Part shown: positions 5,810-52,096 of the stretch, one piece after another | Layout: each line of letters begins with the position of its first letter | Numbering within the stretch: position 1 is the first letter of the stretch | Sequence record: MK977694.1 | Source: Escherichia phage vB_EcoM-Sa45lw | Length of the DNA stretch: 64,000 bases | Reading direction: 5' to 3' (one strand) | Position numbers and translations under genes: made by a program | Notes under the pieces: generated by a model | Seen by the model: the letters and a program-made list of their open reading frames with translations, nothing else | The model's database searches: none | What the model was told of the DNA's origin: nothing

Positions 5810-6091
5810 TTAATTGAACAGTGGAGCGATGCGTTTCAGAAGAGTAGCAGCACCTTTAGCGAATTTTACATCATGAAAAACAGTTTCTTCTTCCGTTACA
5901 ACACGAGCTTTAATGTTTTCACAATCCCAATTTTTGCGAACAATCTTCAAAAGCTGCAGTAAATCTTTACATTCAGCAATATCGATAACACATCCACGAG
6001 AATCTTCCATTATTGCACGATAACCGTAAGCCATACCATAATCGTTGAAAGATTGCTCGATGATAATTAAGTTTTCCATTTTATTCTCCAA
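5810..6091 (-). CDS. hypothetical protein
   Basis: 93-aa ORF in gene chain. Confidence 0.5.
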   Translation of the reverse strand: MENKMENLIIIEQSFNDYGMAYGYRAIMEDSRGCVIDIAECKDLLQLLKIVRKNWDCENIKARVVTEEETVFHDVKFAKGAATLLKRIAPLFN

Positions 6092-6175
6092 GTTATTTTC
6101 TGTATCAGTAGTTGATATTGATATAGTACCATAATCAACTACTGATGTATATAGTTTTATGAAAAAATTTAAACT

Positions 6176-15456: not shown

Positions 15457-15597
15457 TTACAATTTAGCGGCTTTCCAGAGTTGTTCAATAATCTCTTGGT
15501 CTATTTCTTTAGTTATTTCATTACGTAATAAAGCAGTAAGGGCTTTCGCCCTTTTCTTATTCAACTTTTTGAGTTGACGCTTATTTAAACGAGCCAT
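15457..15597 (-). CDS. small basic protein
   Basis: 46-aa ORF; ATG overlaps gene 56 stop (TAATG). Confidence 0.45.
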   Translation of the reverse strand: MARLNKRQLKKLNKKRAKALTALLRNEITKEIDQEIIEQLWKAAKL

Positions 15598-16115
15598 TAA
15601 TAACCTCGGTCTTGACGAGCGAAGTTTTCAGCATTTTTCAGGTAATAAAGTTTAAAGATTTCTTCTGCTGTAAGACCAAGACCCTGGAACATATTCAGAA
15701 CGAAATGAAGAATATCAATCATTTCAAATTTAATTTCTAACTGGTCTTGCGGAGACAAATCAGTAATCAGAGTTTCACGACGTTCACCATGCTGCGACTT
15801 CCAAGGTTTCCATACAGCAGATGCGTCTTTTTCACCATTACTCATACCACCAAGAGAAGTCAGAAGTTCACGGAATTCATCATCAATATAATCTTTCTGA
15901 TTGCGTAGCCAATCAACAACTTCACCTGCAGTAGCCAAATCATCAGGATGACGGTTATATTCAGGTTTATCTTTAGCTAAACGAACCTGTAAAGATTTCT
16001 GCATATCAAGCATAACCTGCAGCGGGTCTTTTTCATCACCGAGAATATCCCAATATTCATTTTGAGCTTTATCAGCGCCTTCAATCAGTTGACTACATTC
16101 GTTAAAGTAAGCCAT
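15597..16115 (-). CDS. 56: dCTP pyrophosphatase gp56 (MazG-like)
   Basis: 172 aa from ATG at 16115, T4 gp56 size. Confidence 0.85.
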   Translation of the reverse strand: MAYFNECSQLIEGADKAQNEYWDILGDEKDPLQVMLDMQKSLQVRLAKDKPEYNRHPDDLATAGEVVDWLRNQKDYIDDEFRELLTSLGGMSNGEKDASAVWKPWKSQHGERRETLITDLSPQDQLEIKFEMIDILHFVLNMFQGLGLTAEEIFKLYYLKNAENFARQDRGY

Positions 16116-16149
16116 TATTTTTCCTTTCAATTCATGGGTTAGTAGATTA

Positions 16150-16173
16150 ATTATACAATAAATATATAAAGCA
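16150..16173 (-). promoter_or_regulatory. middle promoter (MotA box TGCTTTA, 11 bp, TATAAT)
   Basis: Minus strand TTGCTTTAT then TATAAT about 35 nt upstream of gene 56. Confidence 0.6.
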
Positions 16174-16186
16174 ATAAGGAGGACAT

Positions 16187-16387
16187 ATGGTACAAAAATT
16201 AATGGCACTTGTTAATGCCATCAAAGGTAATAAGAAACGTATAGCTTTTACTATTTCTGCTATGGTAGGAATTTTACTCTGGAACTTTATTCTATCACCT
16301 GTTGCAATTGCACATGGTATTAATATTCCAGTAGTTACTCTTGATACATTTGTAGATTTAGCATTTGCTTTAGTTGGGTTAATTTAA
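16187..16387 (+). CDS. small hydrophobic protein on opposite strand
   Basis: 66-aa ORF; AAGGAGG 4 nt upstream of ATG; no recognised promoter. Confidence 0.4.
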   Translation: MVQKLMALVNAIKGNKKRIAFTISAMVGILLWNFILSPVAIAHGINIPVVTLDTFVDLAFALVGLI

Positions 16388-19427: not shown

Positions 19428-20854
19428 TAAAATTTTAATTCATTTGCCAAAGCATCTAACTGAGCTCGAGTGGATTCATTTCTTTGATAGCGATTCTGTT
19501 CAGCCTGAATCTGTTGTGAACCTGCTACTTCACTCACTTCGGTTGGAGTAGAATCTTGTTCAATTTCTACCCATTTTTGATTTCCTTTTTGAACACCCAT
19601 CAAAAACTTATTCCACTTATTCTTATCACCATATCGTGATTTGATTTGCTTAATGAGTTGTTGTTCAGCAGCTGCTAGCTCCTCGGTTTCAATGACCGCA
19701 AGCATAAAATCAGCTGTCGCTGGAAGACCAGCAGATTCTGCGATATCACTCATGTTAACATCGGAAGAGTCCCAAGCTTGTTTACCGACCTGTGCTGCAG
19801 TCCAAAGAACAGTTTCGGTTTCAACAGCAAGAGCACGCAATTCCTCTGCAATAGCTTTAACAGTTGTGTAACTATTTTCTGAATAAACTCTAATGCGGCA
19901 AGATTTACAAATACCTAGATAGTCGACAATAATGATTGTTGGAACAAAATTCTTCTTGAGCTTCAATTCATTCAAGAGAGACCTGAATGTGTTAGCATCT
20001 GCCCCACCAGTGGGATACTGTTTAACGATTAAACGACCGAGAGTAGATTTCTCACGCCATTTTTCCATTTTTCCTTTATACTCAGCGTAAGAAATATGCC
20101 CATCATCAATGTCATCAAGAGAAACATCAAGCATATTAGCATCAATACGTTTAGCACAGACTTCTTCTGCCATTTCCATGGAAATGTAAAGAACATTATG
20201 TCCGAGCTGTAAATAATCTGCTGCCAATGAACACAATCCTAATGACTTACCAACGTTAACTCCAGCCATTAAAACGTTCAGTGTTCCAGTCTCAGCTCCG
20301 CCTTTAGTAATTTTGTTTAGAATTCTGAGTTTAAATGGAACTTTACGAGCTTTATTCATATAAGATAGCCAGCGTGCTTCGTAGTCATCCATCCAATCAT
20401 GACCAACGTAGCTATCAAATGAAATTGATAATGCTTGACGCATGATGTCAGGAATAGCACCAACGTCCGGCATTTTCTTATTTCGTTTTTCCGGAGGAAG
20501 CTCAGCATTAGTTTGAATTTCGATTATTTTAGACGTAGCATTAAACATCGCCCTTTGCTGAACATATTTTTCTGTTTCTTTTATTAACCAACTGTGGTCT
20601 TCCGGAGAATCAGCTAGTTTTGAAATAAGTGTTTTTACACCAGAATATTCTGTTTCAGTAAATGAACTATTTTCTAATGCAACATTTAACGCATTAATAG
20701 ATGGAACGCTATGGTACTCATTAACATGAGATTTAATTAATTTGAACGTATTTTTAGCTGGACCACTTTCAAAATATTCTGAATCCATATATGGCCAAAC
20801 TTTTGAAAAATAAGCTTGATCAAATATGAGATGAGAAAGAATAATTTCTACCAC
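19427..20854 (-). CDS. 41: replicative DNA helicase gp41 (DnaB-like)
   Basis: 475-aa ORF, T4 gp41 length; Walker A GVNVGKS. Confidence 0.93.
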   Translation of the reverse strand: MVEIILSHLIFDQAYFSKVWPYMDSEYFESGPAKNTFKLIKSHVNEYHSVPSINALNVALENSSFTETEYSGVKTLISKLADSPEDHSWLIKETEKYVQQRAMFNATSKIIEIQTNAELPPEKRNKKMPDVGAIPDIMRQALSISFDSYVGHDWMDDYEARWLSYMNKARKVPFKLRILNKITKGGAETGTLNVLMAGVNVGKSLGLCSLAADYLQLGHNVLYISMEMAEEVCAKRIDANMLDVSLDDIDDGHISYAEYKGKMEKWREKSTLGRLIVKQYPTGGADANTFRSLLNELKLKKNFVPTIIIVDYLGICKSCRIRVYSENSYTTVKAIAEELRALAVETETVLWTAAQVGKQAWDSSDVNMSDIAESAGLPATADFMLAVIETEELAAAEQQLIKQIKSRYGDKNKWNKFLMGVQKGNQKWVEIEQDSTPTEVSEVAGSQQIQAEQNRYQRNESTRAQLDALANELKF

Positions 20855-20863
20855 ACTTACTCC

Positions 20864-21208
20864 TTAAAAGAATTTAAACTTTTTCTTTGACCTTTTATTA
20901 AATGCATCTTGTAGTTGCATTGTAATACATTTTTCTACATGAGGAGCTAACTCAGCTTTTCTTTCTTGGTCAAGAACAGCAAAGTCCATTACGACTTTTC
21001 CATCAACCCAATCTAATTTTGTCACATACACAATATGTGTAGAACCATCTTCTAGTTTAATGACAATCTCCTGGATAACATTTTCCATGGCAGATTTAAT
21101 TATCTTAAGAGATTCATTAAAAAGACGTTCTTTTCTTTCTTCTTCCCCCTCCGAAGAGGGGGATTCATCGATAATTTCTAGATCTAAATCTAAATCATCT
21201 TTATTCAT
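20864..21208 (-). CDS. 40: gp40 head assembly protein
   Basis: 114 aa from ATG at 21208 with GGAAG RBS; contains an in-frame C(UUCG)G hairpin. Confidence 0.6.
   Translation of the reverse strand: MNKDDLDLDLEIIDESPSSEGEEERKERLFNESLKIIKSAMENVIQEIVIKLEDGSTHIVYVTKLDWVDGKVVMDFAVLDQERKAELAPHVEKCITMQLQDAFNKRSKKKFKFF
21145..21162 (-). other. intragenic C(UUCG)G stem-loop within gene 40
   Basis: ccccctc-cgaa-gaggggg perfect 7-bp GC stem inside coding sequence. Confidence 0.6.
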
Positions 21209-22382
21209 TAAATTCTTCCATATCACTTAACTGCTCGAGATCAGTTTCTAAATCAGCTGCTGATTTACTTTTACTTTCTGGAGATTTAAATTTTTCAACC
21301 TTTGAGTTAATCAATTCATCAACTTCAGCTTCAACAATTTCATTACTATCAATAGCACCTAACTGATAAGCACGCTTAATAGCATCTCGGAATGGTTGAT
21401 GCTTAAATAAAGGACCCCAGAATGTAGTGCAGTTGGTATCTTTTGCACGCCAAGATTTTTCTTCGCGAATCATCTCACCGGTTTCTTCATCAAGAAATTC
21501 ACGAGCATACCAACCATTCTTAGGTTTTACTACAAATCCTAATTCAAGAGCCATATCTAGCAATCCAGAATAAGGATCAATACCACCGTCAAATTTAACA
21601 TCAATAAAGAATTTACTTTTTTCTTTAACGGTACGAGATTTTTCTACATTTAGAACAAATTGATACCCCTGAAGATCAGAACCATCTTTAATCTGACGCT
21701 TACCGATAATGAATACTGTATCAGCCGAATACATTACGCCTGTACCACCTGTCATCACGGTTTTACTAAACATTTCAATTGTTTCAATTGTATGGTTAAC
21801 CGCAACACATGGAATATTTTTAATGCTAAAGTAAGGAGTAACGATACGGAATAATGACTTCAGCGATTTAGCACGAGTCATATCTGCCACAGATTTTTCA
21901 TTTAAGGCATCTTCCGTTTCTTTCTTAGAAGCCATATTACCGATTGAGTCGATGAATACAATAACCTTTTCACCGCGCTCAATAGCTTCAAGCTGGTTCA
22001 CCATATCAATTTTCAGCTGTTCAACTGACTGAATCGGCGTATGAATTACTCGTTCCGGGTCAACTCCCATGGATCGCAAATAAGCTGGAGTAATACCAAA
22101 TTCGCTATCATAGAATAGACAAACCGCGTCAGGATATTTGTTCAAATATGCCGCAACCATAGTCAAAGACATATTTGATTTAAAGTGTTTAGAAGGCCCT
22201 GCGAAAATAGTTAAACCAGACTGCATACCGCCATCAATCGCACCAGAAATAGCAATATTCAGCATTGGAATTTTTGTACGGATTACATCCTTTTCATTAA
22301 AGAATTTAGATGTAGTCAGTTCAGCAGTCATTTTAGAAGTGGAAGCTTTAATCAAACGGGATTTTAAATCTGCAATAGACAT
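21201..22382 (-). CDS. uvsX: UvsX recombinase (RecA-like)
   Basis: 393-aa ORF; RecA-fold motifs; acidic C-terminal tail. Confidence 0.93.
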   Translation of the reverse strand: MSIADLKSRLIKASTSKMTAELTTSKFFNEKDVIRTKIPMLNIAISGAIDGGMQSGLTIFAGPSKHFKSNMSLTMVAAYLNKYPDAVCLFYDSEFGITPAYLRSMGVDPERVIHTPIQSVEQLKIDMVNQLEAIERGEKVIVFIDSIGNMASKKETEDALNEKSVADMTRAKSLKSLFRIVTPYFSIKNIPCVAVNHTIETIEMFSKTVMTGGTGVMYSADTVFIIGKRQIKDGSDLQGYQFVLNVEKSRTVKEKSKFFIDVKFDGGIDPYSGLLDMALELGFVVKPKNGWYAREFLDEETGEMIREEKSWRAKDTNCTTFWGPLFKHQPFRDAIKRAYQLGAIDSNEIVEAEVDELINSKVEKFKSPESKSKSAADLETDLEQLSDMEEFNE

Positions 22383-22459
22383 TCATTTTTTCCATAGGCA
22401 TCATTATATTTTCCTCACTGGTTAAAGATAGAATAATTATAACACAATAAATTTAGGCA

Positions 22460-23308
22460 TTAATCAACTGCTATTGGATGAATAGCATTAAACTTATGAA
22501 ATGCTTCTGATTTTTCTTTACGTGAAACGCACATGCGAAGAACCTTTAATGGCTCGTCTTCTTCACCCAACGATTTTCGTTTTTCAATATTAGAAGTTTT
22601 CCAACGAGCTTGCTCTGGAAACTCTCTATTGATTTGCTCAAGCGCTCTATTATGTTTAGAATTACTACGAATTGAACTGCACCCGCCAGGAGCTTGTGCT
22701 TTTCCAGATACAACCAGATATTTGAACAAGGCCAAATGCGGATAACCTTGATTAATTAAATTGAGAAATGCATACATATCTTCGCACAAATCAATTTTTC
22801 CATACCCAATTTGTTCTGTCGTAAGTTTTCCAAGGTCATACCATGTATTCGTGAATCCATATGAATTTTCACGATAATTACCCCAAGATGAAGTAATTTT
22901 AAAAATTGGTAGGCGAGCATGACCATGATAATACCCGCAATCCATGGCATCTTCGACGTATTGAATCAATTCATAGAACTGTTCATGAGTCAATTGATTA
23001 ACTTTATCCACACAACGACGGTCATCTCTTTTTCGCATTGAACTCATACGAATAGTAGTATCATCGTCAATCATCCAGATTCGTTGACCTGCATACATAT
23101 CAGTAATTGCTTTACGAGTACCGGCAATTCCATTTACATCATCAGGAATAGTTATAATTTTAGCTTTAGACCCATAAGCGTCATGATAAGCTTTTTCTTC
23201 ATGTTCGCGCACTACAATATGCGGTTCATAATCAGTCGGAAACATATCAAGGGCAGAAACTGCCCCTACGCGTTGATAGCTTGGAATTACGAATTGAATC
23301 ATTTCCAC
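22460..23308 (-). CDS. putative GT-A-fold glycosyltransferase at the beta-gt locus
   Basis: 282-aa ORF between uvsX and 42; IDDD (DxD-like) motif; not T4 beta-gt. Confidence 0.55.
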   Translation of the reverse strand: MEMIQFVIPSYQRVGAVSALDMFPTDYEPHIVVREHEEKAYHDAYGSKAKIITIPDDVNGIAGTRKAITDMYAGQRIWMIDDDTTIRMSSMRKRDDRRCVDKVNQLTHEQFYELIQYVEDAMDCGYYHGHARLPIFKITSSWGNYRENSYGFTNTWYDLGKLTTEQIGYGKIDLCEDMYAFLNLINQGYPHLALFKYLVVSGKAQAPGGCSSIRSNSKHNRALEQINREFPEQARWKTSNIEKRKSLGEEDEPLKVLRMCVSRKEKSEAFHKFNAIHPIAVD

Positions 23309-24039
23309 TCACCGTTATAATCTTTTTTCACAATATGAGTTTCGCCAGTATTCCACCAATGATCAACCAAGTAAAAATGACGAGAATATACATGAAGACT
23401 TCCGACATTCCATATAATAGAACCTGCTTTATACTGACGAGTTGAATCGCCTGCATTCAAATCAGATACTAATTTATCTAATACGTATTTTTGCCATGCA
23501 TAATCATTACGGAATCCGAAGACCACGTCATTTGAGCGCATGCTTACTACTGCATTGACTTTCTTATCACGAATCAGGTACTGTACTGTATTAGTACACA
23601 TGAAATCTGACATACCATCTTTATTGTAATCAAATTGCATGGATGGACGAGTATAAATCATGATACCACGTCGAGAATCAGGATTTTGACCAAGTTCAGC
23701 TAAACACATATCATACTGGGCATAGTTATCTTCTGACCAAATAGCCCAACCATAATTCGAGTTAATTTCGCCTTTAGAAGATGCTACCTGCTGCCAAATC
23801 TTTGGTGTTTCACCTGGAATATCTTTAACAAACAAACTCTTAGATTTATACCATTCAAGTTCGCGCTGAATGTATTCATCATTGAGAGCGCCAAAAATAA
23901 ACGGTTCATCTGCTACAAATGATGCGCCAATAATTTCAATAGTTTTAACACCGGTTTTATCAACTACGAAATCTTTTTCTTTTAATGCAAGCCCCAAATG
24001 AAGACGGATTTCTTCAACTGTCATAGAGTCACTAATCAT
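23299..24039 (-). CDS. 42: dCMP hydroxymethylase gp42
   Basis: 246-aa ORF, T4 gp42 length; thymidylate-synthase-like. Confidence 0.92.
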   Translation of the reverse strand: MISDSMTVEEIRLHLGLALKEKDFVVDKTGVKTIEIIGASFVADEPFIFGALNDEYIQRELEWYKSKSLFVKDIPGETPKIWQQVASSKGEINSNYGWAIWSEDNYAQYDMCLAELGQNPDSRRGIMIYTRPSMQFDYNKDGMSDFMCTNTVQYLIRDKKVNAVVSMRSNDVVFGFRNDYAWQKYVLDKLVSDLNAGDSTRQYKAGSIIWNVGSLHVYSRHFYLVDHWWNTGETHIVKKDYNGEWK

Positions 24040-24046
24040 TTAAACC

Positions 24047-24196
24047 TCAATTGATACATTCATATTTAACTTGTAACAGTAATAAGCTCCAACCTAAAAT
24101 AATAGTTGGAATCATAAGAGGAACCGTTACACTATAGTATATACTTATTATAATCATCAAGATTAAAAGCAACACTGTTATAATTTTGCTTTTCAT
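24047..24196 (-). CDS. small membrane protein (imm.1-position)
   Basis: 49-aa hydrophobic ORF; ATGA overlap with imm stop. Confidence 0.5.
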   Translation of the reverse strand: MKSKIITVLLLILMIIISIYYSVTVPLMIPTIILGWSLLLLQVKYECIN

Positions 24197-24444
24197 TCCT
24201 TCTCTCTGATGATAATTACCTGATTTGGTTGTGCAGACTTTTTAGTTTCACCCGCAATTGACCAAATAAATGTAATAAACCAACCAATAATTGACCAGTT
24301 AAACAGTAAAGACGTGAAAAAGATTCCTACTGTTGATTTTGACCCACGCATCAAGGCGATGAACCATGGAAGCATGTATATAATAATAGCCAACACACCT
24401 GAAACTAAAACCATAAAAATTGAACCTGCTACTAAAGTTTCCAT
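24193..24444 (-). CDS. imm: superinfection immunity protein Imm
   Basis: 83-aa two-TM ORF, T4 Imm length, next to gene 42. Confidence 0.8.
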   Translation of the reverse strand: METLVAGSIFMVLVSGVLAIIIYMLPWFIALMRGSKSTVGIFFTSLLFNWSIIGWFITFIWSIAGETKKSAQPNQVIIIREKE

Positions 24445-24451
24445 GTTTTCC

Positions 24452-24832
24452 TCACTTAGTCAAATTTTTTACACATGAATTATAAGAATTCACTACATAC
24501 TCCATCGGAGCATTTTTACCAGTACGCCATTGGTAATTATTAGCCCAATTAGCCCAAATTTCGGCGCAGTAGTTTTCAATTTTTTCTTCGCGTGTAATTA
24601 CATCAGAATTACGATATGCTTGAGCAGATTCATCTGGACGAATAGCTTCGTCAAAATTCGCCTGCATTTGTTCGACTGTTTGCTTTGGAGCTTCTTTATA
24701 ACACTTGACATTAGGATTATAAAATTTGCTTGAACAGTTTACAATTTTTCCTACATCAGACTGATTTACTACCGGTCCTTGAGCCACACAACCAGTAAGA
24801 CCTAATGCAATAACCAAAATAGCGATTTTCAT
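24452..24832 (-). CDS. putative lipoprotein
   Basis: 126-aa ORF with signal peptide and LTGC lipobox. Confidence 0.55.
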   Translation of the reverse strand: MKIAILVIALGLTGCVAQGPVVNQSDVGKIVNCSSKFYNPNVKCYKEAPKQTVEQMQANFDEAIRPDESAQAYRNSDVITREEKIENYCAEIWANWANNYQWRTGKNAPMEYVVNSYNSCVKNLTK

Positions 24833-24842
24833 AATAATTTCC

Positions 24843-25091
24843 TCAAATGCAAGTAGTAATTACTCCAGTAGTGCTTATGCAGGTATTACCCATTTGCACA
24901 CCTAAAGATCCATTTGTATTCACATGAAGATTATCATCAATTTTAACTGATATTTTACCATTAGTGTGAATAACGGTGCTAGATTTAATCACAGGTTGAG
25001 TATCATTTTCAACACTAACAAATGGAACTGCTGCTAATGCAACTAAACAAACTGCTAAGCATCCCATAACAATTTTCATTTCATTCTCCAA
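24843..25091 (-). CDS. putative secreted protein
   Basis: 82-aa ORF with N-terminal signal sequence. Confidence 0.5.
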   Translation of the reverse strand: MENEMKIVMGCLAVCLVALAAVPFVSVENDTQPVIKSSTVIHTNGKISVKIDDNLHVNTNGSLGVQMGNTCISTTGVITTCI

Positions 25092-25116
25092 ATCTGTATC
25101 AGTAGTTGATAGTTGT

Positions 25117-25146
25117 ATAGTACCACAGAAGAACAGTCTCGTAAAC
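25117..25146 (-). promoter_or_regulatory. T4-type early promoter
   Basis: GTTTAC, 18 bp, TACTAT plus conserved leader. Confidence 0.6.
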
Positions 25147-25232
25147 AGTTTTGTGAAAATTTTTTAGGGAATTCTAAAGGTCCAGAATCATCTGTTTTTC
25201 ATAAGTATAGATTTATATTACTTGTATGAAAA

Positions 25233-25250
25233 AGGGACCCGGAGGTCCCT
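25233..25250 (-). terminator. GC-rich tetraloop stem-loop after gene 43
   Basis: agggacc-cgga-ggtccct. Confidence 0.55.
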
Positions 25251-25262
25251 AGATTTATTCTA

Positions 25263-27959
25263 TCAGCCAAACAGGAAGTCTAACGAAGCTTTTTCTTCAT
25301 AGTCCATACCAGCCGATTCACACATGCCCGCAAGCGGTTTAACAAACGATTTTTGGAACAAAGTTGAGTAGTCAATCCAAGACAGTACGTCAGAACGAAT
25401 TTCTTTTGGAAGTTCTGTACCCGACGGCCAAGCAATGCACTTATCACCAAATGGATTTCCTTCACGCAATGGAAGAACCATTACCTTATTTCCATCCAAA
25501 ATTGGAGCTACACCTAAACCGCTAACAGCTCGACGATAAGTTAGCACACCACGAATATGGAACGGGCATTTAAATCCTGGCCAACCTTTATCATCATATT
25601 TCGCTATATCGTTCGCAGTTTTTACTTCAGCAATAACTTTATAGTCAAGTTGACGATATTCTTTCTCGAAGTTCTTGTAATATTCTTGGACAGACTCTTC
25701 ACCTTCCTGAAGAATACGACGAATACTTTCTTCGAGAGCTTCTTGGACCGCTTTAGGCGTTGAACTCTGCTGAGTTTCCATACCCATGATTTTTAGATGC
25801 GGTTCAGCAAATCGCTTATCTTCCATATCATAAACGTTCAGAGCATAACGCTTTTTCGCTTTCCAAAATCCACCAACGCCCTTTGAACCAAGTGGAGGGC
25901 AAGAAATAGCTTCACGGTCCATATGCATCAGATGCTCGCGGTTATTCATATAATCACATAACTCACGATATGCAACATCAATCATAGGTTCCATCTTTTT
26001 CTTACCGAACTGATTCATGAATTCAACTAAATCGTTCTGCTCTTTGAATCGGTCAAGACCAACTTTTTCAATAACTTTATCTACACAAACATATACCGAA
26101 TCAGTATCACCTGCTGCGATGAAATCTTCGCCATTAGTTCCACATACTTTATTCAGATACTCATTAATTTTACGAGCAATCCACTGAATACCGACTTGAC
26201 CAAAAATTGTAATAGCAGTAGCATTTCGCAAATCATAGTAGCGGAAATGAATATTACCAAGAGCACCGTAAAGGCTGTTAATAAGAATTTTACGGTTCAG
26301 CTGATTTGTATTAGCAAGTGTAGCCGCTTTTTCACATTCTTCAATCAAACTATTGAGAACAGATTCAGTATAATTCGATAGTTCATTTAAGAAATCATCA
26401 CTGAACTTAACATATCGTTTAACTTCAGGTTTAGTTGAACAAGACCCTGCGCCTTTCATAATAATCTTTTTAATAGCTTCGGCATTCATTTCTTCAGCGA
26501 ACATTTTCTTTTTCCAATCTTTACGCTGGAAAAATACTTTAGCGATTTCCTTTGGAATGATACCTTCTTGATGCTTATCATACATCCATCCATTCGGAGA
26601 ACAAGAATATTCATCACTCGGTTTAGGAGCTGTTCCTGCGATATATTCATGAATTGGATGAACTTTAAACTGACCACGAATAGTCTCAGGACTAATGTTA
26701 ACCTGACGAATAATGCTAGGATACAGAGACGTCAAGTCAAAACTCATAATATATCGACGAGCAATTGGTTTAGGTTCAAACACAAATGCACCCGGAAAAC
26801 TTTGTTTAACGTGCGAACCTTGTTGAGGAATAACCTTATGTTCACCTTTCAATGAGTTAAAAATAATAGCATCCCAAGTTTTAATAGGACTCATTACACC
26901 GGAAAAAGGCATTTTAGCGTAATAAGACATACTTAAAACTAGATCGATAAACCCGCGAATTTTATCAATTGCTTGAACTGATTCTACGTCAATGATGTTA
27001 TAACTGATATATCGTTGATGATTAGTCTCACGAAGTTTATTAATAGGACCATCGTACGGTAATTTACCTTTTTTGGTTTCATGCTGAGCAACTGATTCCA
27101 AAGAGAATGACGGCAAATTAGTAAATGCGAATTTCTTATACAAATCTAAATAATCAAGAATAGATACGCCATCAATAGAATAAATTTCTTTGCTACCGTA
27201 CATATTTTGAATTAGTTTAGATTTTACTCGACCGATTGGAGAGAAACGTTTCATACTGCGTTCACCGAGAACCATTTTAACGCGATTCATGATATACGGA
27301 ACGTCAAATCCCTCAATATTCCAACCAGTAAAAATAGCAGGTCGTTTCTGTTCCCAAAGATTGATATATTCCATGAGCATATCGCGCTCATTATCGAATG
27401 GCATATAAATTACTCGGTCAAGAATTTCTTGAGGAACTTCATCACCACCTTCACAGTCAAGCTTAGCAGCTAACTTTGCATCCCATTTTGATACTGAACC
27501 GTACATTGAATTCAAAAGGTCGAAAACATAAAAACGATCATCAATTGAATCGTAATGAGTGATAGCATCAATTTCATATTCAGCTTTCATTGGGTCAGGA
27601 AATTTATCACCAGTAACCTCAATGTCACAGTTAGCTACACGAACAAATTTTCGGTCATAAACAATTTCTGAACCATATGTATCACTGATATAAGCGAGTT
27701 TAAAATCGTTCATACCGAGAGCTTCGAGACCGATGTCTTCCATTCGTTTCATCCAATCTCGAGCATCTTTCATTGATGGAAATTTTTGAGGAGCGCAGTT
27801 TTTACCATAAATGTCTTTGTACTTTGACTCTTCCTTACAATGCCTAAACATAGTTGGAAGATATTCTACTTCACGAGTACGTTCCTTTCCGTTTTCATCA
27901 ATATAACGTTCAACAATGTTATTTCCGACTGTTTCAATAGAGATATAAAATTCTTTCAT
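25263..27959 (-). CDS. 43: DNA polymerase gp43 (family B)
   Basis: 898-aa ORF, T4 gp43 length; exonuclease and YGDTDS-like motifs. Confidence 0.95.
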   Translation of the reverse strand: MKEFYISIETVGNNIVERYIDENGKERTREVEYLPTMFRHCKEESKYKDIYGKNCAPQKFPSMKDARDWMKRMEDIGLEALGMNDFKLAYISDTYGSEIVYDRKFVRVANCDIEVTGDKFPDPMKAEYEIDAITHYDSIDDRFYVFDLLNSMYGSVSKWDAKLAAKLDCEGGDEVPQEILDRVIYMPFDNERDMLMEYINLWEQKRPAIFTGWNIEGFDVPYIMNRVKMVLGERSMKRFSPIGRVKSKLIQNMYGSKEIYSIDGVSILDYLDLYKKFAFTNLPSFSLESVAQHETKKGKLPYDGPINKLRETNHQRYISYNIIDVESVQAIDKIRGFIDLVLSMSYYAKMPFSGVMSPIKTWDAIIFNSLKGEHKVIPQQGSHVKQSFPGAFVFEPKPIARRYIMSFDLTSLYPSIIRQVNISPETIRGQFKVHPIHEYIAGTAPKPSDEYSCSPNGWMYDKHQEGIIPKEIAKVFFQRKDWKKKMFAEEMNAEAIKKIIMKGAGSCSTKPEVKRYVKFSDDFLNELSNYTESVLNSLIEECEKAATLANTNQLNRKILINSLYGALGNIHFRYYDLRNATAITIFGQVGIQWIARKINEYLNKVCGTNGEDFIAAGDTDSVYVCVDKVIEKVGLDRFKEQNDLVEFMNQFGKKKMEPMIDVAYRELCDYMNNREHLMHMDREAISCPPLGSKGVGGFWKAKKRYALNVYDMEDKRFAEPHLKIMGMETQQSSTPKAVQEALEESIRRILQEGEESVQEYYKNFEKEYRQLDYKVIAEVKTANDIAKYDDKGWPGFKCPFHIRGVLTYRRAVSGLGVAPILDGNKVMVLPLREGNPFGDKCIAWPSGTELPKEIRSDVLSWIDYSTLFQKSFVKPLAGMCESAGMDYEEKASLDFLFG

Positions 27960-28017
27960 AGATATTCCTTAGTTTATAGCCCGAGTTATTAGGCTCTTGA
28001 TATATTATACTCCAAAT

Positions 28018-28035
28018 AAGGGGCCGAAGCCCCTT
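28018..28035 (-). terminator. C(UUCG)G stem-loop
   Basis: aaggggc-cgaa-gcccctt upstream of gene 43. Confidence 0.6.
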
Positions 28036-28037
28036 GC

Positions 28038-28301
28038 TTAAATTAGTACTATTTGCCGGGTGAAAATTGTCAATCCATCTGCATTAATTGACTTAACGAC
28101 TGCAGTAAAATGTTTTTGTTCTGGGTGAACTAATTTTTGAAATTCTACCTGAAATTTTAATTGGAGGTTTTCTGGTAAATCAAAAAGTGTTTCTGTTGCA
28201 GAAAGATTATATTTTTCTTTAAGAGACGCCATGTATTCTTGCGGAGTTATAGCAGTCATATTAATTACCAATCGTATATTTAGGAACGAGTTTCCATTCA
28301 T
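28038..28301 (-). CDS. hypothetical protein
   Basis: 87-aa ORF between regA and 43. Confidence 0.5.
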   Translation of the reverse strand: MNGNSFLNIRLVINMTAITPQEYMASLKEKYNLSATETLFDLPENLQLKFQVEFQKLVHPEQKHFTAVVKSINADGLTIFTRQIVLI

Positions 28302-28629
28302 GTTTTTGTTTAAAAGAAATAACTCGGAAGTTATTAGTTAAATCTTTCATAAAAGTTCTTTGACCAGGAACGATTTCAATCAGTCCCCAATCTTCTAACA
28401 GCCATGCAATCGAATCACGACGAACTTCATCTTCTTCTGTCATTTCAACTTGACGGCCATCCATACGAAGCATTTCTTTAAAATGAACGATATAGTATAG
28501 TCCTTTTTTCTGAAGAATATGACAGGACTGATACAGAACTTTATCTTTATTATTAGCAATTCCCATACGAGTCAAAGTTTCTTTTACTTTCAGAAAATCT
28601 TCAGGTTTTTTAAGAGTAATTTCAATCAT
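28261..28629 (-). CDS. regA: translational repressor RegA
   Basis: 122-aa ORF, T4 RegA length, in 45-44-62-regA order. Confidence 0.88.
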   Translation of the reverse strand: MIEITLKKPEDFLKVKETLTRMGIANNKDKVLYQSCHILQKKGLYYIVHFKEMLRMDGRQVEMTEEDEVRRDSIAWLLEDWGLIEIVPGQRTFMKDLTNNFRVISFKQKHEWKLVPKYTIGN

Positions 28630-28630
28630 T

Positions 28631-29194
28631 TTACCATTCCAATGCTAGTTTTTTGAGTTGTTTCTGTTCTTTTACGTTCTTAGTCACTTCTTTCAAAAAA
28701 TCATCCGTGACTAATCCTTTAAGTTCTTTTAATACTAAAGGTAGTTTTCCATTTTTAGTAAGAATTGATTTATAGTTAATTGCATCATTTGTATTAACTT
28801 GATAACGCTTAGCAAGTAACTTAATAATCAATACTTCGGTGGAATCTTCAACTAGTTTTGCCCATTTACCATATCTTTTACCACGAGGAACTGCAGCCAT
28901 TAGATAATTAAAATGGGCTTCATCACTTAAGCCTGATCCAATTAAATTCATAGCATATACAGCTGGCATGCACTCTGGAAATTGTGATAATGCATTTTCA
29001 ACCATGAATTTTGAATAATCTTTTTGAGCAATAGAGCATTTAGTTTTATTATTAATAGCTCCAATTATTTCAAAAAACTCATTTTCAGCTTTTTCTTTAA
29101 AAGAATCAGCAGCGGATTGGACAGCCGTCCAATCTTTTGAATACCAAGCAACTTGATGCTTGTTTAATTGAATATCATCTTCAAATAAGCTCAT
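28631..29194 (-). CDS. 62: clamp loader small subunit gp62
   Basis: 187 aa from ATG at 29194, T4 gp62 length. Confidence 0.85.
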
Positions 29195-29195
29195 A

Positions 29196-30155
29196 TCACT
29201 TCCACTGCATTTCACATGCTAACTGAATGAAAAGATAAGCTAAATGCAATTCAGTATTAGCTGCAATACCATGATACTGATTATTTTCGCCGACAATTTC
29301 GTACATACGAATAATACTCTGTGGAGTTACACGTGAATAGATTTCTTCGGCAAGTTTACCCACGAACCACGAATAATCGGCTGCATATTTTGGTGCTAAA
29401 GCTCTGAGTTGTTTAACATCTTTATTTTTGAGAGACTCAAGAACATCATCAATAGCACCACGATCGTTAGTAACCAGTGATAAAATACCAGCATCCAAAA
29501 CACCCTTAGATGAATAACTATCGAGCTCGCCAATAGTTTTACGAAAATCAGGAAAATTCTTTTTAACCAAAGCTGCTACAACTTTCATATCAGCTATAGC
29601 AATTCCTTCATGCTTGCAGATTTCAGTCAATCGACGAATCATCTGCTTCATCATTTCAATTTTATCTTCATCGGTCGGTTGACCGAATGTAATAACTCGG
29701 CAGCGTGACTGAAGTGGTTTAATAATACCATCAATATTGTTAGCAGTAATAATAATACTACAGTTTGAACTATAAGCTTCCATAAAGGAACGAAGATGTC
29801 GCTGAGACTCTGCTAGCCCTGAACGGTCAAATTCATCAATAACGATTACTTTTTGACGACCATCAAATGAAGCTGCGCTGGCAAAATTAGTCAAAGGACC
29901 GCGAACGAAATCAATTTTACAATCTGACCCATTCACAAACATCATATCAGCATTTACATCATGACACAATGCTTTTGCTACAGTTGTTTTACCTGTTCCT
30001 GGAGAAGGAGAATGAAGAATAATATGTGGAATCTTACCTTTACTTGTAATAGATTTAAAGGTTTCTTTATCAAAGGCGGGAAGAATACATTCATCGATAG
30101 TAGATGGACGATATTTCTGTTCAAGAATGTGTTCTTTTTCATTTACGGTAATCAT
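29196..30155 (-). CDS. 44: clamp loader AAA+ subunit gp44
   Basis: 319 aa from ATG at 30155; Walker A GTGKTT. Confidence 0.92.
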
Positions 30156-34897: not shown

Positions 34898-34915
34898 AAA
34901 GGGCCGAAGCCCTTT
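34898..34915 (-). terminator. C(UUCG)G stem-loop at 3' end of alpha-gt
   Basis: aaagggc-cgaa-gcccttt overlapping alpha-gt stop, T-rich flanks. Confidence 0.6.
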
Positions 34916-36116
34916 ATTTTGTAATAATGTCAAACTGTTCTTTAAAGCAGAAGCTTGAATCTTGATGCTGATACAAAAATTCATAAGCTTTTTCGCGTTC
35001 GCGGTCATAAAGAATTCGGTCAGATGACAGTTCTTTAATACGTTCAAATGTTGATTCCATGTCATTTTCATCAAACCAAATGATACCGCTATCATGCGAG
35101 GTCAAAGGAGTATTATCAACACGGAATTTTAAATTTTCGCCAGTAGATTTCCAAAATACCGGAATTGTTCCACATGCACCAAGCTCGAGATGAGTATATT
35201 CTAAAGAACGTTGTAGATATTTTTTATCCAACTTACTCAACTGATAACCAAAACCGGATTTACTCATACGTTCAAGCATTTCGCTATTTACATAACGGTC
35301 AAGAATTTGCGTTGGCAAATTAGGAGCAATTTTAATTTGGTCTACTTGATGAAGACGATAATACTCGTATGGAATTCCTTTTTCTTTAATAGGAATGAAC
35401 GCTGGAGAACGTTCCAGACCTTCCATAATAGTACTTAGTCCTGCAGGTTTAAGATGTTTTTCATGAAAATCAAACATCTGATAAAAACCTTTCCATGTAG
35501 TCGTACGACCAATCCAACGGTTAACATTCATGTTAATTTCAGAAACATCTTTCCAGTAGGTTGATCGAACCTTCGCAATATCCATAGGAGGCTGAAAGTT
35601 ATATACTGTCGGTGCTTCTTCAATATCATCAAACAGAGAAACAGTTTCTGGATACCATTCTTTCATCAGAACTTTATTAAAATCACCATTATCAGAATGG
35701 CTAAAAATAACATCAGCTCGACGAACAGTTTCTTCTAATCCCAAATTTCGGCGCAAAGAAAGAGAAGAATGGTCATGTTGATAAACTACAACACGAACAG
35801 AAGGTTTAATGTTATCAATAATTTTTTTATAGTTATTAATAGTGTCTTCTTCAACCGAAGTAGCAGGAACTGAATTGATAATTAGAATATCACAATCATT
35901 TACCAGCTTAAGTGTTTTATCGTATTCTTTTGCCAATAAAACCGGAATTGAAAATGATTTATAATCATGTGCGCAATTACGAGTAAATGATTTATCTTTA
36001 GCATAAACCAAAGTCACTTCATGACCATTTTTAATAAACCAATCACGTTGCTCGAGTGAGAATTTAGTTACACCACAGCCTTCAAGACCTCGAGCCATAA
36101 AAATACATACTTTCAT
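34914..36116 (-). CDS. a-gt: DNA alpha-glucosyltransferase
   Basis: 400-aa ORF; N-terminus CIFMARGLEGCGVTKFSLEQRDWF matches T4 alpha-gt. Confidence 0.92.
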   Translation of the reverse strand: MKVCIFMARGLEGCGVTKFSLEQRDWFIKNGHEVTLVYAKDKSFTRNCAHDYKSFSIPVLLAKEYDKTLKLVNDCDILIINSVPATSVEEDTINNYKKIIDNIKPSVRVVVYQHDHSSLSLRRNLGLEETVRRADVIFSHSDNGDFNKVLMKEWYPETVSLFDDIEEAPTVYNFQPPMDIAKVRSTYWKDVSEINMNVNRWIGRTTTWKGFYQMFDFHEKHLKPAGLSTIMEGLERSPAFIPIKEKGIPYEYYRLHQVDQIKIAPNLPTQILDRYVNSEMLERMSKSGFGYQLSKLDKKYLQRSLEYTHLELGACGTIPVFWKSTGENLKFRVDNTPLTSHDSGIIWFDENDMESTFERIKELSSDRILYDREREKAYEFLYQHQDSSFCFKEQFDIITK

Positions 36117-50568: not shown

Positions 50569-50595
50569 TTTTGTTCCTCCGTAGTTGATAGTTGT

Positions 50596-50625
50596 ATAGT
50601 ACCACAGAGGAATGGTCTTGTAAAC
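50596..50625 (-). promoter_or_regulatory. T4-type early promoter
   Basis: GTTTAC, 18 bp, TACTAT plus conserved leader. Confidence 0.6.
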
Positions 50626-50627
50626 AA

Positions 50628-51033: not shown

Positions 51034-52002
51034 TTATTTCAGAAGAGTAACCTCAGCGATTTCTTCCCAACCGTTTTTGTCGGTCATAATAAAGTCAGCA
51101 AGATAAAGCGCAGTACGCAGTGAAACATTGCGTAAACGATTAACATTGACTTTCATCCATGATAATGCTTTATAAGTTTCTTCATCAGAAAGACCGCGCT
51201 TTTGCATCATGTCAGTTGAAAGAATAACATCTTCAACCCTGACCATAATTTCTTCATTAGTGTGAACACCCAAATCCAAATAAACTGAGCGGGACACTAA
51301 TGCTTGTAAATGTGGAGCAAGTTTAGTACCACGATCTAATTCGCGGTCAATGTCAACGTTTGTGATAAAAACAATCGTTCCTTTAAATTCAAACTCACGC
51401 TCAATGCCTTTTTCTTCTAAGTAAGAAGATGCGGTGCTCCAGCAGACTTTACGGGTCTCTCCGGTGTCCAGAGCAGCTTTCAGAAGATTAAGAATGTCCA
51501 TATCAGAGAAAACATCCACATCATCAATCAAAAGGACAGAATTCTCTTCACGATTATTCCAAAGCTGTTCATAAAGACCAATACCAGAGATTTTACCATT
51601 AATGCTTTTATATTCAATGTATCCAATATCATTTGCTTTATTTAAAGCTTTATCTAAAGAATACGTTTTACCAATACCTGCTGCTCCCGAGATAATTAAT
51701 GAACGAATGTTTCCGTTAATAATACCATTCGTCATCATTCCCATAACATTAAATCTTTTATTAATGCGGGTTTTCATATCTTCATACGATTCTTTAACTT
51801 CTTCAACTTTTACACCATCATATGAAATGTCTGATTTATAAACCCAAACACCGCGACGTTTACCGTCAATTTCAACAAAAACTTTACCATCTCCTTGTGC
51901 ATCTACCGGAGCATTATCTGGGAACCATTCACCTAAGAGCTCAAAAGTTCCAGAGATTTCTTTACCGAAGTAGATACCCTTATTGATAGTTACAGTTTTC
52001 AT
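51034..52002 (-). CDS. AAA+/P-loop ATPase with N-terminal beta-rich domain
   Basis: 322 aa from ATG at 52002 with GGAG RBS; Walker A GAAGIGKT, Walker B LLIDDVD. Confidence 0.6.
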   Translation of the reverse strand: MKTVTINKGIYFGKEISGTFELLGEWFPDNAPVDAQGDGKVFVEIDGKRRGVWVYKSDISYDGVKVEEVKESYEDMKTRINKRFNVMGMMTNGIINGNIRSLIISGAAGIGKTYSLDKALNKANDIGYIEYKSINGKISGIGLYEQLWNNREENSVLLIDDVDVFSDMDILNLLKAALDTGETRKVCWSTASSYLEEKGIEREFEFKGTIVFITNVDIDRELDRGTKLAPHLQALVSRSVYLDLGVHTNEEIMVRVEDVILSTDMMQKRGLSDEETYKALSWMKVNVNRLRNVSLRTALYLADFIMTDKNGWEEIAEVTLLK

Positions 52003-52036
52003 TTTATTCTCCAAATCCGTATCAGTTGATAGTTGT

Positions 52037-52066
52037 ATAGTACCATAAAGCTTTATGCTTGTAAAC
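52037..52066 (-). promoter_or_regulatory. T4-type early promoter
   Basis: GTTTAC, 18 bp, TACTAT plus conserved leader. Confidence 0.6.
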
Positions 52067-52096
52067 AATTTTGTGAAAAAATTTTTGAAATAAAAA

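Follow-up and report, generated by a model that had tools for sequence, protein, structure and literature searches.

A gene predicted to encode the T2/T6-type beta-glucosyl-HMC-alpha-glucosyltransferase lies between gene 42 and uvsX in Escherichia phage vB_EcoM-Sa45lw

Organisation of the gene 42-uvsX interval

The 64-kb stretch of Escherichia phage vB_EcoM-Sa45lw analysed here (64,000 nucleotides of MK977694.1, hereafter the window) carries a reverse-strand open reading frame, ba-gt, between gene 42 and uvsX (Table 1). Counted from an in-frame GTG at 23308, the frame covers 22460..23308 (-) and 282 aa, as the first-pass annotation had recorded, but the start used in the GenBank records of CAM-21, T2, EH2, Solly and Geo is the ATG at 23302, two codons past the GTG, and the public product is accordingly 280 aa long. 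The upstream GTG is conserved; this is uninformative on start use because the codon sits within the coding sequence of gene 42. The ATG of ba-gt and the stop of gene 42 share the junction sequence ATGA, and this overlap of two genes on a common strand suggests that they may be translationally coupled. GC content over the ORF (0.34-0.38) is like that of the neighbouring genes, and the order gene 42, ba-gt, uvsX is the same in the window, CAM-21, T2, T6 and Geo. The DNA sequence of the ORF matches that of Escherichia virus CAM-21 (OP611477.1, CDS WAK44050.1) at 100% identity; CAM-21 is a Tequatrovirus for which E. coli O157:H7 was the isolation host, and its record names the gene (023) only "hypothetical protein".

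In relation to T4, the interval shows a clean cassette difference. When T4 20000-30000 was compared with the window by blastn, DNA homology stopped at 22370, at the start of uvsX, and restarted at 23317, in the last codons of gene 42. The T4 interval holds the homing endonuclease gene segA besides b-gt, a correction to the initial description of this slot, and tblastn found no remnant of beta-gt or segA in the 64-kb window.

Table 1. Coordinates of the gene, its motifs, the flanking genes and the pathway genes in the window
Feature	Position	Strand	Remarks
ba-gt (g-gt/ggt), predicted beta-glucosyl-HMC-alpha-glucosyltransferase, TAGT family	22460..23302	-	280 aa, ATG start
Cassette swapped relative to T4	22371..23316		946 bp here, 1941 bp (segA + beta-gt) in T4
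D79-D80-D81 codons, DxD-type motif	23060..23068	-	GACGATGAT; follow strand E74-77 in the model
C173-E174-D175 codons, candidate catalytic-base motif	22778..22786	-	likened to the GT2 "TED" motif
uvsX, downstream flank of ba-gt, not in the modification pathway	21201..22382	-	90.5% aa identity to T4 UvsX
Gene 42, dCMP hydroxymethylase, upstream of ba-gt	23299..24039	-	97% identity to T4 gp42
alpha-gt, DNA alpha-glucosyltransferase, expected to make the alpha-glucosyl-hmC acceptor	34914..36116	-	400-aa ORF; annotated a-gt in CAM-21
Gene 56, dCTPase/dUTPase	15597..16115	-	ORF; CAM-21 "dUTP diphosphatase" at record 21839-22357 maps here

Family, fold and conserved motifs of the encoded protein

Over its full length, the window protein shares 98% identity with the T2 orthologue (AP018813) and 99% with the T6 orthologue (AP018814), and along the same length it falls in PHROG 842 (E = 2.5e-89), the family named "beta-glucosyl-HMC-alpha-glucosyltransferase". 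The Pfam family PF20691 (TET-associated glycosyltransferase, TAGT) is matched at 41.5 bits, above its gathering cut-off of 27.5. One protein database search returned only 11 clusters, mostly T-even relatives. The T2 and T6 genes agree with that of the window in length, in the slot between gene 42 and uvsX, in the partner alpha-gt, and in the DDD and other conserved motifs; the differences amount to 3 to 5 substitutions at variable positions (H40, K46 and H106 in the window).

As phmmer found no PDB sequence match at E up to 1, the fold was tested with a structure model. This model is of moderate confidence (mean pLDDT 70.8, residues 125-151 and 203-211 below 50, input alignment of 10 sequences); it adopts a GT-A fold and matches GT-A enzymes, not GT-B, and the two-Rossmann-domain GT-B fold was looked for in it and not encountered. 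The first-pass annotation had proposed a GT-A-like enzyme and had offered, as the second sugar modification, either the gentiobiosyl type of T2 and T6 or another sugar. The former is supported by the identities to T2 and T6, PHROG 842, the TAGT match and the GT-A model, whereas the latter is very unlikely at 98-99% identity to the T2 and T6 enzymes.

These data also bear on the reading of the protein as a highly diverged T4-type beta-glucosyltransferase (GT-B, PF09198) kept at its ancestral locus, for which the shared genomic position speaks, together with the names "b-gt" or "putative beta-glucosyltransferase" given to the gene in some GenBank records. A full-length alignment to the 351-aa T4 beta-gt was looked for, but BLASTP gave nothing significant, the best hit having E = 0.29 over 10 residues. 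Moreover, PF09198 was not matched at E up to 1, the family recovered by Pfam being TAGT, the model resembles GT-A enzymes, and T4 DNA homology breaks exactly at the cassette borders. A T4-type identity was rejected on the BLASTP result, the Pfam family and the GT-A model, and is given no credence; the earlier claim that an unrelated protein fills the T4 beta-gt slot is borne out by the BLASTP and tblastn searches. The T4 enzyme, whose structure is PDB 1JG7 (cited in PMC13216743), resembles the TAGT-type enzyme in adjoining gene 42, in using UDP-glucose and in forming a beta-linkage on modified phage DNA, but it has no sequence similarity to the window protein, differs in fold and takes hmC itself as acceptor, while the acceptor of ba-gt would be alpha-glucosyl-hmC. 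The naming of the TAGT-type gene in GenBank varies (hypothetical protein, b-gt, putative beta-glucosyltransferase, glucosyl transferase), and conversely, in RB55 (KM607002), a genuine T4-type b-gt bears the label beta-glucosyl-HMC-alpha-glucosyl-transferase.

The DxD-like IDDD motif noticed at first pass is real: it lies in WMIDDDTT, its aspartates being encoded by GACGATGAT, read from 23068 to 23060, and it follows strand 4. D79, D80 and D81 are all invariant in 10 homologues down to 32% identity and, by analogy with GT-A enzymes, presumably bind the metal and the diphosphate of the UDP-sugar. In homologues over the same range, P7, S8, Y9 and R11, just past strand 1, are also invariant, as is D175, whereas E174 is nearly so; likened to the "TED" motif of GT2 enzymes, E174-D175 is a candidate catalytic base.

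In the CAZy classification, GT2 enzymes act through an inverting mechanism. To form a beta-1,6 bond with UDP-alpha-glucose as donor, ba-GT, a GT2-like enzyme of GT-A fold, would have to be inverting, and the fold is thus consistent with the expected product. The resemblance to inverting GT-A enzymes of the GT2 family, such as TarP (6H1J), TarS and BcsA, is one of fold, with only 7-16% identity to the window protein. The acceptors of these enzymes are polysaccharides or teichoic acid, whereas that of ba-gt would be a sugar on DNA, and the window protein is devoid of membrane or carrier domains.

Glucosylation pathway and expected DNA modification

Within the 64-kb window, ba-gt co-occurs with alpha-gt, gene 42 and gene 56, and a T4-type beta-GT is absent. 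The T4-like alpha-gt, which had been described as retained, is confirmed at its position, with 99.3% identity to the alpha-gt of T2 and about 91% to the T4-type alpha-gt of RB59. The product of gene 56 clears the pool of DNA precursors of unmodified dCTP (T4 knowledge and PMC11078745, Extended Data Fig. 9). In the proposed pathway, gp42 would make hm-dCMP and gp56 would remove dCTP, so that the polymerase would incorporate hmC into DNA; alpha-GT would then attach an alpha-linked glucose to hmC in DNA, and ba-GT, with UDP-glucose as donor, would add another glucose in beta-linkage at the 6-OH of the first, yielding gentiobiosyl-hmC. The probability that 22460..23302 encodes the T2/T6-type ba-GT (g-GT), which after alpha-GT would give gentiobiosyl-hmC, is put at about 0.93.

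The identity to the T2/T6 gene, the position, the family, the fold and the upstream pathway genes are observations of the present analysis; the link from gene to product is taken from the literature. Deletion of ba-gt in T6 left only alpha-glucosyl-hmC, made the DNA degradable by Brig1 and rendered the phage more sensitive to Brig1 (PMC11078745), and the same outcome was obtained with a T6 delta-g-gt mutant (bioRxiv 10.64898/2026.02.25.707755). In new Tequatroviruses which, like T6, combine alpha-GT with a TAGT "at the position syntenic with" the T4 beta-GT, analysis of the nucleosides by HPLC/MS revealed alpha-5-gentiobiosyl-mdC, beta-glucosyl-mdC being absent (PMC13390438).

On a broader scale, tblastn retrieved the ba-gt protein in 688 of 50,697 phage records (472 at 90% identity or more) and the T4-type beta-gt in 126 (only 29 at 90% or more), while alpha-gt was present in 652. 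Given these 688 records as against 126, Tequatrovirus genomes are usually arranged like the window, and T4 is the exception. The novelty implied at first pass is consequently unsupported: this is the textbook T2/T6 arrangement, the majority state in the genus, and it has been described in PMC13390438 and PMC13216743. The gene is an already characterised T2/T6 enzyme in its normal place, and entails no new biology.

The wider family leaves some room for a TAGT transferase which uses another donor sugar, or which acts on hmC or on a beta-glucosyl acceptor, so that the modification would be unlike that of T2 and T6. TAGT homologues are found alongside alpha-GT, alongside beta-GT or with neither, and specificities within the family probably differ (PMC13216743); distant homologues at 48-66% identity adjoin beta-gt in phages of Serratia, Salmonella, Citrobacter and Enterobacter. 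For the window protein, however, such a specificity is extremely unlikely: it is 98-99% identical to the enzymes of T2, T6, EH2 and Solly, phages which carry gentiobiosyl-hmC, its differences are confined to variable columns, and it stands alongside an alpha-gt nearly identical to that of T2, with no beta-gt in the 64-kb window.

A gentiobiosyl-type enzyme being the preferred reading, the extent of its action is a separate matter. T2 DNA contains about 70% alpha-glucosyl-hmC and 5% gentiobiosyl-hmC and T6 DNA about 3% and 72%, with bare hmC at about 25% in both (bioRxiv 10.64898/2026.02.25.707755; the classical figures are also reviewed in PMC6024577). As the two enzymes are about 98% identical, the extent of gentiobiosylation is not readable from sequence. 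The closest measured comparators are the Durham Collection Tequatroviruses EH2, Solly and Geo, whose proteins are 99%, 99% and 96% identical to that of the window and whose synteny is identical; their virion DNA, analysed by HPLC/MS, contains alpha-5-gentiobiosyl-mdC. EH2 and Solly contain about one-third hmC and two-thirds gentiobiosyl-hmC, and in Geo the ratio of hmC, glucosyl-hmC and gentiobiosyl-hmC is approximately 1:2:2 (PMC13390438). The EH2 and Solly proteins differ from the window protein by H40Y, K46R and H106R, all in variable columns. The dam gene is present in Geo-type phages and T4 but absent from EH2, Solly and the window, where the interval from gene 56 to gene 61 (16116..16383) holds no dam and Geo Dam had no match by tblastn. 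Since the ba-gt of EH2 and Solly is near-identical and both phages, like the window, have no dam, CAM-21 DNA is predicted, with modest confidence, to be T6-like, consisting mostly of gentiobiosyl-hmC with the rest as bare hmC. The sole ORF of the dam-free interval encodes 66 aa at 16187..16387 (+).

The T2 figures nonetheless raise the possibility of a ba-gt with poor or no activity, as the T2 enzyme seems to be, and hence of DNA mostly alpha-monoglucosylated. Only about 5% gentiobiosyl-hmC is formed in T2 despite a 98%-identical gene, and lesions do arise in public T6 records (a stop at codon 10 in MH550421, the loss of one Asp codon in AP018814). Neither these lesions nor the R11H and P251S substitutions of T2 are found in the window; its ORF is intact and keeps R11 and P251, two conserved positions altered in T2, and EH2 and Solly, with only three variable positions changed, are about two-thirds gentiobiosylated. 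Low activity is on this account very unlikely, and similarly slight is the chance that the CAM-21 variant (H40, K46, H106) gives a pattern unlike both T2 and T6 in extent, sequence context or sugar. If it did, sensitivity to Brig1-type glycosylases, GmrSD-type enzymes or Cas nucleases would be altered.

The T2 substitutions deserve a separate mention. R11H and P251S are present in both T2 records, AP018813 (L003:2501-3343) and PV958097 (L008:3228-4070), which are independent. R11 does not vary in the TAGT alignment and P251 hardly does; both residues are retained in the window, T6, EH2, Solly and Geo. The two changes could thus be a candidate cause of the sixty-year-old gap between T2 (5%) and T6 (72%), and no mention of them in this role was found in the literature cited here. 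The T6 records differ from each other: one Asp codon of the DDD run is missing from AP018814 (L004:3135-3974), which reads GATGAT in place of GACGATGAT, while MH550421 (L010:3138-3980) keeps DDD but has the stop at codon 10, and a 261-aa "ggt" is annotated from Met20. These lesions may be stock differences or sequencing errors. The IDD of AP018814 as against IDDD was considered as a determinant of the gentiobiosylation level and rejected as it does not track with it: EH2 and Solly, at around two-thirds gentiobiosyl, have IDDD like the low-level T2, and the second T6 record also has IDDD.

The relevance of ba-gt lies in deciding between gentiobiosyl-hmC and alpha-glucosyl-hmC in phage DNA. In vitro, DNA with gentiobiosyl-hmC is protected against the Brig1 glycosylase, and how the DNA is glucosylated influences type IV restriction (PMC11078745). 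The practical gain is a correct annotation of the gene in an O157:H7 phage for therapy or biocontrol, such as CAM-21, along with the prediction that its DNA would be T6-like and free of beta-glucosyl-hmC.

Regulatory scans and additional features of the window

A scan of 22000..24600 returned 12 promoter and 1 terminator candidates, as compared with 9.9 and 1.1 in shuffled controls, and therefore no excess; no Rfam family was matched at gathering thresholds anywhere in the window. The single terminator candidate is a GC-rich hairpin of 9 pairs with a T-rich tail at 23248..23268 (-), within ba-gt, in the 5' part of its coding sequence; in GenBank, some relatives have a "terminator" annotated under ba-gt.

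Between imm and gene 42, a strongly hydrophobic ORF of 49 aa (24047..24196, -) is unannotated in CAM-21, but the Geo and T2 PV958097 records list it as a CDS; identity to the Geo protein is 94%. Further along, a segment of about 230 bp (24833..25065), lying between imm.1 and gene 43, is absent from T4. It holds an 82-aa ORF (24843..25091, -) which has a signal-peptide-like N-terminus and corresponds to CAM-21_019, a hypothetical protein. Finally, the intergenic T4 segment 27007-27100, upstream of imm.1, has copies at 76-88% identity in the window at 51996..52086, 6073..6170 and 50578..50626, which have the look of an intergenic repeat and may represent an early promoter or a regulatory region.
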